Under the pieces are notes generated by a model, which saw nothing but the letters and a program-made list of their open reading frames with translations, did no database searches and was not told where the DNA came from. A DNA stretch of 64,000 nt from Escherichia phage dhabil: the sequence record MN850621.1. One strand, written 5' to 3'. Position 1 is the first letter of the stretch. Every line of letters starts with the position of its first letter. Shown here piece after piece: positions 8,065 to 42,941 of this stretch. The position numbers and the translations under genes were made by a program.

Positions 8065-9743
8065 TCCATCACCGTGAATCGTCCAACTTTCTTCATTTGG
8101 AGATGTTGGCCATAAGCTTGTGGGTCATGGTCTCGGTGAGAGATAATGAACACGTTCGTATCCTCAAGGCTATTCAAGATGGTTGCAATGCTCTTAACGC
8201 CTTCAGCGTCAGTTGCACTGTCAAATACCTCATCAAGAATCAGTGTGGATATATTAACACCTGATACCCTAGAAGCAATATCACGCCATGTAAAAAGAAG
8301 TGCGATATCAATACGTGCTTTCTCACCCTGTGAAAATGAAGCATAACTAAAGTCTTCACGTCCACGTGATTTAATCGTCTCATTGAATTCTTCGTCTAGA
8401 GTAAAGACGTAGTCCGCTTCCATAATCTTCAAATAAGAATTAATCTGCTTATTAAAGATAGGAATGTATTTCTTAATAATGGAACCTTTAATACCGGTAT
8501 CCTTCAACATTTCTGTCAGAATTCCACGATGATATTTTTCCATTACCAAGGACGATTTGGTAGAGACGATTTTATCAAGCTCCGCTTGAAGCGTAGCAAT
8601 CTCTTCAGCATTACTTACGAACTCAGCTGCTGCCTGGTCAATTAATACCTTAACCTTTTTAGCTTTCTCTACAGCAGTAATGGCTTGCTGCTTATGAGTA
8701 GCTATCTGAGATTTAATAGCCAAAGCTTTATTGCGTTGTTCGGTTACTTGGTCTTTAATGAGCTTGAGTTCTTGGTATTGCTCATTAATCTTATCCAAAG
8801 ATTTTTGAAGCTCAAAGTTTTTATCCTTAATTTTAGTAAGGATATTACCATGCTCTTCTAACCCTTGCATACACGTAGGACAATGGCCACCGGTTTCGTA
8901 TAACTTAATTACCTTTGTAAAGGTTGCCATATCATTTTTGATTGCAAATCCTTTATTACTCAGGTCACTCATGGAGTTGCTAGGGTCATCATCTACGATA
9001 ACATTGAGTAATTCATCAGTCAGGGATTCTATGCTCGCCTTCGCAGTCCTGGCTTCTTTAACGAGCTCATCATACATTAATTGTAGACGGGCAGCGTTCT
9101 CGCCGGATAATTTACGTTGACGTTCTTCGTTGTCGTTATAAATTTTAATTTGTTGGGTAATAGAATCTTGCTTAACGTCTATTACTTGGATTTGGCTATT
9201 AGTCTCACGAATCAAAGATTTGTTCAACTTATCCATATCCGCTAATACAGAAACCTCTAAGAGGTCTTCGACGAGTTTTCTTCTTGCAGGAGTGGATAGG
9301 CCCATAAAAGGGGTATATCCAGCTGTGCCGAGTACGACAATTTGTTTAAAGCTTGCGTAGGACATTCCGATAAGCTGTTCAAATTCCGCTTGGAAGTCTT
9401 TACTGCTGGCAGATTCATCAAGACGTTCACCGTCACAAGAGATTTCAAAAACGTTGGGTTTTTGCCCGCGTTTGATATAGTATTCTTTGCCATCATATTC
9501 CATCCACAGTTCGACCAAAAGGTCTTTCTTGTTACTTGAGTTAATCAACTGCCCTTTCTTAACATCACGAAAAGGCTTACCAAACAGAGCAAATGTTACA
9601 GCTTCAAGGAATGTTGATTTCCCTGCACCATTTTTACCTGTGACTAAGGTCTTTTGGACCTTATCAAGTTGGATTGTAATAGGCTGCTGCCCTACCGACA
9701 TAATATTTTTATACGTTACTTTATTTAACTTAAACGTTTTCAT
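8061..9743 (-). CDS. 46: recombination endonuclease ATPase subunit gp46 (Rad50/SbcC-like)
   Basis: 560 aa; Walker A GKNGAGKST, central coiled coil with CPTC zinc hook, C-terminal LILDEVFD (Walker B); T4 gp46-like. Confidence 0.93.
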   Translation of the reverse strand: MKTFKLNKVTYKNIMSVGQQPITIQLDKVQKTLVTGKNGAGKSTFLEAVTFALFGKPFRDVKKGQLINSSNKKDLLVELWMEYDGKEYYIKRGQKPNVFEISCDGERLDESASSKDFQAEFEQLIGMSYASFKQIVVLGTAGYTPFMGLSTPARRKLVEDLLEVSVLADMDKLNKSLIRETNSQIQVIDVKQDSITQQIKIYNDNEERQRKLSGENAARLQLMYDELVKEARTAKASIESLTDELLNVIVDDDPSNSMSDLSNKGFAIKNDMATFTKVIKLYETGGHCPTCMQGLEEHGNILTKIKDKNFELQKSLDKINEQYQELKLIKDQVTEQRNKALAIKSQIATHKQQAITAVEKAKKVKVLIDQAAAEFVSNAEEIATLQAELDKIVSTKSSLVMEKYHRGILTEMLKDTGIKGSIIKKYIPIFNKQINSYLKIMEADYVFTLDEEFNETIKSRGREDFSYASFSQGEKARIDIALLFTWRDIASRVSGVNISTLILDEVFDSATDAEGVKSIATILNSLEDTNVFIISHRDHDPQAYGQHLQMKKVGRFTVME

Positions 9744-9955
9744 GTATTGTTCTCACGAATTGTTTGTTCAGCATATTCTAGCATTTCTTCGGAAGAAGCA
9801 AACACGTCGTCAAGTTCCATGGCCCATGAAACACCTTCAGAATATTCAGAAGTGACATACATAGTTCCGGTATACCAAGAACCATCCACGTCCCATTCTA
9901 CATTACCGAACCAGCCATCGCCAATATGAAAATCATGTTTATACATTTTCATCAT
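9740..9955 (-). CDS. hypothetical acidic protein
   Basis: ORF with SD AGGATG before internal ATG; start uncertain. Confidence 0.4.
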   Translation of the reverse strand: MMKMYKHDFHIGDGWFGNVEWDVDGSWYTGTMYVTSEYSEGVSWAMELDDVFASSEEMLEYAEQTIRENNT

Positions 9956-41479: not shown

Positions 41480-42103
41480 TTATTTACGAGTCTTTTCGAA
41501 CTGAGCTGCGTCACCGGCCAGTCGGCGTGCTTGACGAAGTTTGTTGTCAATTTCTTCGCGCATAGGCTGGGTGTACTTAAGGCCTTCAACCGTCAGATAG
41601 AGACGATAAAGGTCTGGTGTGTCCAGGTTGTTAATGTGTTGACCGTTACGAAGAACATTGAATTCACGAACAAGGTGTTTAGTTTCGGATTCTATTTCAG
41701 AAACCAAAGAAGCCAGTTGGTTATATTTTTTAACAATAGTGCTGGTGTCGAACTTGATTTTAGGTTTAGGAGCTTCTTTTACAGGCTCTGCTTTAGGTGC
41801 TGCCGCAGGTTTAGGTGGTGCAACTTTGGTTGGGGCTGCAGGTTTAGCAACAGGAGCTTTAGCTGGTTTAGCAGGTTTAGTAGCGCCACCGGCTACGATA
41901 TCTTTAAAAGCTTTGGAAGCTTTGTAATATTCTTTCTGGTTACTAGTATCAAAACCATACATATCATAAACGTTTTTAAAGAACTCGGTAGTGGTTTTAG
42001 TCCCGGAAATTTTATCATAAGCAGCTTGCCACATATCTTTAGTCATGCGCACGCTGGCTTCAGTCAGAACGCTTTCGTTCAAAAATTCATTGTAAGTTTT
42101 CAT
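41480..42103 (-). CDS. capsid internal protein (IPIII-like)
   Basis: N-terminus MKTYNEFLNESVLTEA matches the T4 internal-protein capsid targeting sequence; Pro/Ala/Lys-rich linker; late promoter upstream. Confidence 0.6.
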   Translation of the reverse strand: MKTYNEFLNESVLTEASVRMTKDMWQAAYDKISGTKTTTEFFKNVYDMYGFDTSNQKEYYKASKAFKDIVAGGATKPAKPAKAPVAKPAAPTKVAPPKPAAAPKAEPVKEAPKPKIKFDTSTIVKKYNQLASLVSEIESETKHLVREFNVLRNGQHINNLDTPDLYRLYLTVEGLKYTQPMREEIDNKLRQARRLAGDAAQFEKTRK

Positions 42104-42132
42104 TATTGTTTCCTGTGTTAATTAACTTATCT

Positions 42133-42140
42133 ATTTATAC
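42133..42140 (-). promoter_or_regulatory. late promoter (TATAAATA)
   Basis: Minus-strand TATAAATA about 30 nt upstream of IPIII-like gene. Confidence 0.55.
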
Positions 42141-42170
42141 AAAAAAGGCCCAACCTTTCGGAAGGGCCTT
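42141..42170 (-). terminator. intrinsic terminator ending the tRNA transcription unit
   Basis: Minus GGCCC-loop-GGGCC hairpin followed by TTTTTT. Confidence 0.55.
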
Positions 42171-42171
42171 T

Positions 42172-42338
42172 AACCTAGGGTAACCTTGTCGGGGTTCCAC
42201 CTGCTAGGCAAGTGTTCGGTGCGCCGTTTCAGCTGTGAGATAAGGGACTTTAAGAGGAACTCATGTACGCCTTAAAGTCGGGTCTTATTCAGGGAACTTC
42301 AGTCCGACGACTTACCGGTAGCGACCCGGTTTCTTGTT
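42172..42338 (-). ncRNA. structured small RNA downstream of tRNA-Arg (possible T4 species 1/2-like stable RNA)
   Basis: About 165 nt non-coding segment between tRNA-Arg and the terminator with long hairpins (CGGGTC…GACCCG; GACTTTAAG…CTTAAAGTC); no tRNA T-loop. Confidence 0.3.
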
Positions 42339-42414
42339 TGGTCGAGACAGTAGGGATCGAACCTACGACCCAGGACTTAGAAGGTCCTTGCTCTTCCTTC
42401 TGAGCTATGCCTCG
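42339..42414 (-). tRNA. tRNA-Arg (anticodon TCT)
   Basis: Hand-folded cloverleaf: acceptor CGAGGCA/TGTCTCG, D-arm GCTC/GAGC, anticodon stem AGGAC/GTCCT with loop CTTCTAA, T-arm GTAGG-TTCGATC-CCTAC, CCA encoded. Confidence 0.8.
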
Positions 42415-42418
42415 TATT

Positions 42419-42493
42419 TGGCGGACATGCATGGATTCGAACCATGGACCAATTGATTAACAGTCAACTGCTCTACCACTGAGCTACACATCC
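42419..42493 (-). tRNA. tRNA-Asn (anticodon GTT)
   Basis: Hand-folded: D-arm GCTC-AGTGGTA-GAGC, anticodon loop CTGTTAA, T-arm CATGG-TTCGAAT-CCATG, CCA encoded; acceptor stem has two G-T pairs. Confidence 0.7.
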
Positions 42494-42497
42494 AAAT

Positions 42498-42571
42498 TGG
42501 TGGCCCTGGGTGGAATCGAACCACCATCCAGCGATTATGAGTCGCTCGCTTGACCGTCCAGCTACAGGGCC
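42498..42571 (-). tRNA. tRNA with CAT anticodon (Met, or Ile if lysidine-modified)
   Basis: Hand-folded: acceptor GGCCCTG/CAGGGCC, anticodon stem AGCGA/TCGCT with loop CTCATAA, T-arm GGTGG-TTCGATT-CCACC, CCA encoded. Confidence 0.75.
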
Positions 42572-42656
42572 TTAATTCTATTATGAAAGGCTCTTTGAGG
42601 GAAGAACCTTTGGTAATAGAGGGTATTAATGATAGAGTAATAATATCACATAATTC

Positions 42657-42941
42657 TTAAAGCATATTAATATAGTCAAGTTTAATAGAAGCAATCTTCA
42701 AAGGGTTTTTAAAGATGTCGTATTCGACCAATCCATTTTCAGTTGCGGTATAAAAAGTAAAGTTAACAGAATTATAGCGATGGCTGTTAACTTTGAGTTT
42801 AACATCGCTTGAACTACGGCCAATATTAACCTGTTGAACATCAAGCACGGCATCTTTGCCGTAATTTCGAATCAACAACTCGGCTGCAACCTGATCGGAT
42901 TTATAGCCATTCTCTGGATTAGTAACCTTAACGTATAACAT
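42657..42941 (-). CDS. hypothetical protein
   Basis: 94 aa ORF. Confidence 0.45.
   Translation of the reverse strand: MLYVKVTNPENGYKSDQVAAELLIRNYGKDAVLDVQQVNIGRSSSDVKLKVNSHRYNSVNFTFYTATENGLVEYDIFKNPLKIASIKLDYINML

Follow-up and report, generated by a model that had tools for sequence, protein, structure and literature searches.

Knowledge of small stable RNAs of the rnaD kind goes back to the 1970s, and rnaC and rnaD count among the longest-known genes of bacteriophage T4 that are still uncharacterised. Transcription of the T4 tRNA cluster starts at a middle promoter immediately upstream of it, and the primary transcript covers the tRNAs together with both small RNAs, which are cut from the precursor (PMC2330249). 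A stable RNA of about 120 nt released from a tRNA precursor is known for T4 only (PMC9697503, PMC2330249). RNA-seq classed RNAC and RNAD as late RNAs, the northern probe described being one for RNAC, and both are listed with function unknown (PMC9697503, PMC3014915), as is still the case in reviews from 2010 to 2025 (PMC12685909, PMC9697503, PMC3014915). Adaptation to a semi-permissive host gave three phage lines that shared one and the same SNP, which the authors of the study place in rnaD (PMC12685909).

Here we analyse the end of the tRNA operon in Escherichia phage dhabil (MN850621.1), using a stretch of 64,000 nt that we call the window. By alignment with T4, the locus carries an ortholog of rnaD and lacks rnaC, and comparison with relatives supports a structural model in which a fixed base carries an exchangeable tip.

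Organization of the tRNA operon

The features of the transcription unit, in the order of transcription, are as follows.

42640-42664, minus strand: candidate T4-type middle promoter (sequence reading)
42498-42571, minus strand: tRNA-Met(CAT) (ARAGORN and Rfam tRNA model)
42419-42493, minus strand: tRNA-Asn(GTT) (ARAGORN and Rfam tRNA model)
42339-42414, minus strand: tRNA-Arg(TCT) (ARAGORN and Rfam tRNA model)
42218-42338, minus strand: rnaD homolog (T4 species 2 RNA), about 120 nt (alignment to rnaD of T4 X03016 and of RB5)
42172-42217, minus strand: conserved 3' trailer, 46 nt (the same sequence lies 3' of rnaC in T4 and RB5)
42141-42171, minus strand: intrinsic terminator AAAGGCCC..GAAA..GGGCCUUU followed by a U run (inverted repeat)

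The three tRNA genes, all upstream of rnaD in the unit, score 62-73 bits with the Rfam tRNA model, and 167 nt of non-coding sequence (42338-42172, minus strand) separate tRNA-Arg from the terminator hairpin. The original prediction had placed a structured, non-coding segment of about 165 nt between the 3' end of tRNA-Arg and the terminator, within the tRNA transcription unit, and the coordinates and content of the locus are as it described. The 9-bp hairpin it had pointed out corresponds to an exact inverted repeat, GACTTTAAG/CTTAAAGTC, matching at 9/9 positions (42246-42254 and 42271-42279). Its statement that the segment holds no plausible open reading frame also stands, the ORFs touching the interval being all of at most 47 aa and the longer ones crossing the tRNA-Arg gene. 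The same is true of its failure to fold a tRNA: ARAGORN and the Rfam tRNA model (RF00005) returned no cloverleaf, T-loop or acceptor stem in 42172-42338, and Rfam 15 gave no match of any family within the segment, either at gathering thresholds or at E<=10. The rnaD and rnaC sequences of T4 and RB5 likewise had no Rfam match at E<=1. What did not survive is the idea of a single structured element, as the segment is structured but consists of a 121-nt RNA and a 46-nt trailer.

An rnaD ortholog without rnaC

The region is 100% identical to the corresponding sequence of Escherichia phage dhaeg (Dhakavirus, Tevenvirinae), and a sensitive BLAST search with the 167 nt as the query matched 741 phage records. 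In T4-type genomes the match is split into two pieces about 300 nt apart, and the features beneath it, where annotated, are 'species 2 RNA' in T4 (X03016) and 'rnaD' and 'rnaC' in RB5 (KM606995). A three-way alignment of the window, T4 and RB5 (BLAST and MAFFT; X03016 4615-4734, KM606995) assigns the entire rnaD to 42338-42218, skips the 137-nt rnaC and resumes at the trailer AACACTTGCC..GGTGGAACCCCGACAAGGTT, whose place in T4 and RB5 is 3' of rnaC and ahead of the terminator. T4 rnaD has a length of 120 nt, its first base standing 2 nt past the CCA of tRNA-Arg and its 3' end reading ..GGCGCACCA; its counterpart in the window begins 1-2 nt past the CCA of tRNA-Arg, with the operon terminator (42171-42141) downstream on the same strand. 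On this alignment, the small stable RNA rnaD of T4 has its Dhakavirus ortholog at 42338-42218, after which come the 46-nt trailer and the operon's terminator, and we regard it as very probable that both the identity and the biogenesis of this RNA are those of T4 rnaD. The suggestion that the segment might correspond to the two small RNAs made together with the tRNAs in T4 is thus borne out for species 2, to which the first 121 nt align over the full length; it does not hold for species 1 (rnaC), which is precisely missing, and the last 46 nt or so are not part of rnaD.

Against RB5, the 5' 49 nt and the 3' 25 nt of rnaD are each 92% identical; the core domains stand at 92%, the adjacent e.8 coding sequence at 83% and the apical cassette at 56%. 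We had also considered that the 5' domain of rnaD might be better conserved than tRNA-Arg, which proved wrong (98.7% for the tRNA and 92% for rnaD, versus RB5). A covariance model, R1, whose training set included the rnaD sequence of the window itself, found the rnaD segment as its sole match in the 64 kb, at 126 bits.

The absence of rnaC directly downstream of rnaD in the window concerns a usual feature of T4 and not one that defines rnaD. The junction without rnaC, ..GCACCGAA|CACTTGCC, occurs uninterrupted in about 31 phage records, among them JS98, JS10, IME08, dhaeg, CLB_P2, IME281, AnYang, VR5, MX01, IME341 and the Mosigvirus ESCO47. The Dhakaviruses VR25, PSD9, WG01 and QL01 retain rnaC, which accompanies rnaD at 31 of the 41 loci examined.

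As a separate observation, two contigs (L004 and L035, from IMG/VR and a metagenome) have a different insert between rnaD and the trailer, at the usual place of rnaC; its start reads ..ACCTTTTTATGGAGT, and ..CGCGGATAAG stands before the trailer in each of the two contigs.

A fixed base and a replaceable tip

The predicted structure of rnaD in the window comprises the elements below, from the 5' end.

42338-42331, minus strand: A-rich leader ..AAGAA, preceding P1
42330-42314, minus strand: P1 hairpin, ACCGG (42330-42326), loop GUCGCUA (42325-42319), CCGGU (42318-42314), from RNAalifold
42309-42305 and 42226-42222, minus strand: P2, CGUCG paired with CGGCG, invariant in 41/41 sequences
Within the basal core 42222-42309, minus strand: 6x4 internal loop between P2 and P3
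42298-42295 and 42234-42231, minus strand: P3, AGUU paired with AGCU, with compensatory changes
42294-42292, minus strand: unpaired CCC of the basal core
42291-42284 and 42244-42236, minus strand: P4, with compensatory changes
42279-42271 and 42254-42246, minus strand: apical hairpin P5, GACUUUAAG paired with CUUAAAGUC, from the inverted repeat and the minimum-energy fold
42270-42255, minus strand: 16-nt loop of P5, containing GAGUUCCU

RNAalifold recovered P1 to P4 without guidance, with P1 as a 5-bp stem and 7-nt loop and P3 as [U/A]GUU/AGC[A/U], and the minimum-energy fold of the 121 nt of the window coincides with the consensus structure. A single sequence does not prove this structure, because the folding energy is not significantly better than that of shuffled sequence (z of -1.05 for the 167 nt and of -1.36 for the 121-nt RNA), and its support comes from comparison with relatives. 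We collected 36 distinct rnaD sequences from 41 loci of Tequatrovirus, Mosigvirus, Dhakavirus and Gaprivervirus, and the alignments gave the following agreement with the proposed pairs.

Alignment A2, 34 sequences: 98.2% of cells paired, 25-55% in slid registers, changes on both sides at 5 of 20 pairs
Alignment A3, 41 sequences, distant clade included: 98.4% paired, 26-58% in slid registers, changes on both sides at 10 of 20 pairs
Alignment A5, 6 divergent sequences: 97.6% paired, 30-44% in slid registers, changes on both sides at 7 of 21 pairs

The covariation score of A3 was reached by 0 of 500 shuffles, A3 being fitted to the model and so biased towards the structure. The covariation that the original prediction had proposed to look for in related phages is thus present (98.4% paired cells in 41 sequences, with compensatory changes in 10 of the 20 pairs), with fewer independent compensatory events than the cell counts suggest, because the sequences are closely related and recombining. 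At the closing pair of P1 we counted AU 20 times, GC 13 times and GU 7 times, and its inner pairs show compensatory changes in the distant clade; P2, including its central U.G pair, did not vary in any of the 41 sequences.

Conservation is distributed unevenly along the RNA. Across the collected sequences there is hardly any variation in the 5' 44 nt and the 3' 25 nt, and a search with the 5' 44-mer found 737 phage records at 93% identity or more, one record at 80-90% and nothing else. The centre is occupied in relatives by at least three unrelated cassettes, each folding as a hairpin. Judged by these comparisons, rnaD is a short 5' hairpin (P1) followed by a long irregular stem, the base of which (P2, internal loop, P3 and CCC) is fixed while the tip is a replaceable cassette. 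Readings made by eye of a K-turn, of an acceptor-stem mimic and of a pseudoknot involving the P1 loop were dropped, as the loops differ in the distant clade.

A conserved trailer before the terminator

The last 46 nt or so of the segment are, on the same alignments, a conserved trailer that stands before the terminator in all T-even-type relatives and lies outside rnaD. It divides into three parts.

42214-42198, minus strand: hairpin CACUUGC-CUA-GCAGGUG
42197-42183, minus strand: single strand GAACCCCGACAAGGU, invariant or nearly so among relatives
42182-42172, minus strand: variable linker, deletable in relatives

The 19-mer GGTGGAACCCCGACAAGGT of the trailer is exact in 32 loci, and one pair of its 7-bp hairpin changes from G-C to A-U in 4 of 18 distinct trailers. 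The trailer keeps its place beside the terminator whether rnaD, rnaC or another insert comes before it. The terminator stem, AAAGGCCC/GGGCCTTT, occupies 42144-42151 and 42164-42171, with the T run next to it on the minus strand; T4 (X03016) has a homologous feature under the name 'pot. terminator', and one pair of the stem changes from C-G to G-C in the type found in the window. A simple terminator scan missed it because of a UU/UU internal loop. A long-range pairing between the 5' domain of rnaD and the trailer, suggested by three 5-bp blocks seen by eye, was rejected, as it was no better than with shuffled trailers (p ~0.3).

Relatives in other genera and in another phage family

Model R1 also found a 103-nt relative in Enterobacter phage KMB19 (Karamvirus; 34 bits, E = 2e-6), and a further 103-nt relative in a Klebsiella Jiaodavirus scored 17 bits with R1 and 47 bits with the rebuilt model R2. 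Covariance model searches detected 103-nt relatives in five IMG/VR contigs as well. Each of these Karamvirus, Jiaodavirus and IMG/VR relatives starts 1-2 nt after the CCA of tRNA-Asn, on the strand of the tRNA. BLAST with the Karamvirus/Jiaodavirus type matched 178 records, mostly of Klebsiella and Enterobacter phages, none of which is annotated as RNA. These RNAs keep the leader ..AGAA and the elements AA(G/A)UCGUCGG, (U)CCCUG and ACGGCG; P3 and P4 differ from the T-even type by compensatory changes, and P1 has another sequence, with a 7-bp stem and a GACG loop. Their 20-nt apical loop, AGUUCCCUCAACGAUAAC.., does not vary between Karamvirus, Jiaodavirus and phage A5-4 while the stem that closes it covaries (CUGUG/CACAG, AUAUG/CAUAU, GUACG/CGUGC and CUACG/CGUAG), and the apical loop in the window has GAGUUCC-UC in common with it.

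At two loci of this type (L043 and L046) we observed that the RNA runs immediately into a hairpin, CCGAAAGU..ACUUUCGG, which overlaps its 3' tail (L043 12460-12480 and L046 9975-9995, minus strand), and that about 120 nt of non-coding sequence lie between this hairpin and the next tRNA.

Escherichia phage A5-4 (OP744025), a member of the Vequintavirinae, carries at 606-780 a T-even-like tRNA-Met with a copy of rnaD directly after it (93 bits). This copy is chimeric, joining a T-even-type base to a Karamvirus-type tip, and no other record fell within 80-90% identity in the 44-mer search. The A5-4 copy indicates, as judged from its sequence, that a tRNA-rnaD module has been transferred between phage families, apparently rarely. 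In Edwardsiella phage PEi20 there is a weak rnaD candidate (20.7 bits) with one P2 pair changed in a compensatory manner, and no match to the rnaD model was found in the Tegunavirus phiR1-RT; the region of Marfavirus F48 was incomplete in this search. The PEi20 candidate has upstream of it a sequence resembling the 5' half of a tRNA, GGTGCTTAGCTCAGTTGGTAGAGC (region 9632-9850, minus strand), which ARAGORN did not call and which may be a degenerate or interrupted tRNA.

A metagenome scan added only 12 further relatives, all close. As to an origin in the host or in plasmids, neither 5,426 E. coli genomes nor PLSDB gave a BLAST match or long complementarity. A GTDB motif scan followed by R2 yielded no convincing bacterial homolog among the matches listed, with 100 of 120 loci screened, the matches being weak (16-19 bits) and in GC-rich genomes. 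In total we count rnaD in about 900 sequenced phage genomes, from at least six genera of Tevenvirinae plus the one Vequintavirinae phage, almost always unannotated.

Biogenesis and possible roles of rnaD

Upstream of tRNA-Met, on the minus strand, TGCTTTA (42664-42658), a 12-nt spacer and TATTAT (42645-42640) form what we take to be a likeness of the MotA box consensus, and we infer that they are a candidate T4-type middle promoter of the tRNA-rnaD unit; a generic sigma-70 scan chose TTGACT/AATTAT at 42679-42650 instead. By homology with T4, tRNA-Met, tRNA-Asn, tRNA-Arg and rnaD would be co-transcribed as one precursor, from a promoter upstream of tRNA-Met to the terminator, and rnaD would be freed by the tRNA-processing machinery. 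Its 5' end would lie in the A-rich stretch 1-2 bases past the CCA of tRNA-Arg, and its 3' end just beyond helix P2; with the T4 annotation as a guide, the mature RNA would span about 42337 to about 42217. Once released, it would be expected to accumulate as a stable RNA, as in T4.

What such an RNA might do can be approached through its conservation. We tentatively propose, as a possibility that we hold to be doubtful, that the fixed base is the working part, binding a protein or RNA of the host or the phage and modulating infection in a host-dependent way, and that rnaD acts independently of rnaC. This reading fits the fixed base, the swappable tip, the retention of rnaD without rnaC and its horizontal spread. 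The SNP reported in rnaD hints at a host-dependent role (PMC12685909). A bolder version, to which we would give a low probability, sees in rnaD a mobile modular RNA gene whose base (the U.G pair of P2 and UCCCU) and apical loop AGUUCCCUC.. dock a host factor, acting as a decoy in host takeover or counter-defence, with the trailer being perhaps a separate 3'-derived regulatory RNA; it would explain the convergent rnaD SNP on host ECOR34.

The conserved features could also serve only in cis, for example as an RNase site for the 3' maturation of the tRNA or as a protection of the precursor's 3' end, the stable RNA being a by-product. The position directly after the CCA of a tRNA in Dhakavirus, T4, Karamvirus, Jiaodavirus and A5-4 speaks for such a role, as do the conserved A-rich ..AGAA leader, the constant placement of trailer and terminator at the operon end and the viability of T4 deletions that remove the rnaD region. 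However, adjacency to a tRNA is not required, since in the Mosigviruses RB69 and PhAPEC2 a 345-nt ORF lies between tRNA-Arg and rnaD; moreover, the invariance of a whole helix, its U.G pair included, and of a 20-nt loop on a covarying stem exceeds the needs of a spacer, and rnaD has moved between phage families, so that we find a role purely in cis rather unlikely. Improbable as well, in our estimate, is an RNA that base-pairs in trans in the manner of RsaE/RoxS, with its unpaired UCCC-type motifs (J3/4 GUUCCCUG and apical GAGUUCCU) directed at purine-rich ribosome-binding sites, or with the trailer and terminator forming a 3'-derived small RNA with the seed GAACCCCGACAAGGU. Both clades do keep UCCCUG as a conserved, unpaired motif, the apical loop AGUUCCCUCAACGAUAAC shows no variation among Karamvirus, Jiaodavirus and A5-4 and recurs in part (GAGUUCC-UC) in the window, and the trailer has the order hairpin, conserved single strand, terminator and U tail. 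Yet sites complementary to the apical loop are not enriched in the window (10 versus 6.35 expected), nor are those to the trailer seed (1 extra match versus 0.33 expected); the E. coli genomes gave no match, in a search by which short targets are undetectable, and the apical cassette of T4 itself lacks the motif.

Phage tRNAs counter tRNA-cleaving defences, and a tRNA mimic or degenerate tRNA, acting as a decoy for anticodon nucleases, the CCA-adding enzyme or similar, would suit the location inside a tRNA operon, the 3' ..CACCA encoded in T4 and RB5 and the shape of P1, with a 5-bp stem, a 7-nt loop and U at loop position 2. But ARAGORN and the Rfam tRNA model are empty even at E<=10, there is no T-loop, the RNA ends form no acceptor stem, the encoded CCA is not conserved and P1 in the distant clade is a tetraloop on a 7-bp stem, all of which makes this explanation very unlikely. 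Hardly credible is a protein gene on the plus strand, which would be an ORF of 46 aa (42263-42403) preceded by AAGAGGAA. A strong Shine-Dalgarno-like sequence stands 5 nt ahead of its ATG, and the 2-nt indel of IME281 and VR25 falls into the spacer; against it, the start lies in the replaceable cassette and is missing from T4-type and L007-type sequences, the ORF is absent in most relatives and runs antisense through tRNA-Arg, and the variation consists of compensatory base-pair changes and is not codon-wise. We note that the cassette, read on the plus strand as AAGAGGAACTCATG, opens this 46-codon frame through tRNA-Arg (42252-42403, antisense to rnaD); the frame is probably spurious, because its start is absent from T4-type relatives.

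The overall explanation that we prefer, and consider highly probable, is that of an rnaD ortholog released from the tRNA precursor as in T4, with a fixed base and a replaceable tip.

Neighbouring signals and annotation gaps

Just past the terminator, TATAAATA (42132-42139, minus strand), the T4 late-promoter consensus, is separated by about 30 nt from the downstream ATG (42103) of a gene for 207 aa (41480-42103, minus strand). This gene belongs to PHROG 2280 (unknown function), and its product has a long linker rich in Pro, Ala and Lys. On the plus strand, the complement of P1 together with TTCTTGTTTG (42314-42330) was flagged as terminator-like; the neighbouring annotated genes are all on the minus strand, with no obvious source of plus-strand readthrough.

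Several GenBank records call 'hypothetical protein' ORFs over rnaD and rnaC, or leave the RNAs unmarked, as in MZ234018 (L036, 527-822), OL770107 (CLB_P2), RB69 and PhAPEC2. Among the matches listed, rnaD and rnaC are marked nowhere but in RB5 and in the old T4 record X03016. The lesson for annotation is that hundreds of records leave rnaD unmarked or put ORFs over it.

Comparison with known systems

Beyond existing records and papers, our analysis adds the rnaD-only arrangement, a structural model backed by covariation, the modular tip and unannotated relatives in other genera and in the Vequintavirinae. This locus is a natural case of rnaD standing alone and shows that the RNA is retained in the absence of rnaC, and relatives in Klebsiella and Enterobacter phages and in an unrelated family of E. 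coli phages extend the comparison. Since this comparison draws a clear line between a fixed base and a replaceable tip, specific nucleotides can be singled out for mutation (the P2 U.G pair, the CCC and the apical loop), in phages that are tractable for functional tests.

Two classes of bacterial small RNA offer partial likenesses. RsaE/RoxS-type RNAs have in common with rnaD repeated unpaired UCCC-type motifs, which is a resemblance only, with no homology and no Rfam match. The trailer, in turn, has the layout of Hfq-type small RNAs derived from 3' ends, sharing with them a 5' hairpin, a conserved single-stranded stretch in the place of a seed, a terminator hairpin and a U tail; this likeness is one of sequence layout, and the seed search stayed at chance level.

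Much closer is T4 species 2 RNA, that is rnaD, also called band D RNA. The window shares with it full-length homology, the same strand, the same place after tRNA-Arg(UCU), the same predicted P1 and basal stem, and the same downstream trailer and terminator. The differences concern the tip, the 3' end and the neighbourhood. The apical cassette of the window is unrelated in sequence (the 56% identity with RB5 comes from a forced global alignment), whereas that of T4 is a variant of the RB5-type cassette. The window ends in CACCG where T4 encodes CACCA, and this encoded CCA is not conserved elsewhere either, other relatives having CACAG, CGCAG or CATTG. Unlike T4 (X03016), all Dhakavirus records among the matches listed leave rnaD without annotation. 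T4 species 1 RNA (rnaC), the usual neighbour of rnaD in the same transcript, has a tRNA-like T arm (GGGTTCGAATCCCGG), which rnaD lacks, and it is absent in the window; thus, while rnaD of T4 runs into rnaC, rnaD of the window runs straight into the trailer.
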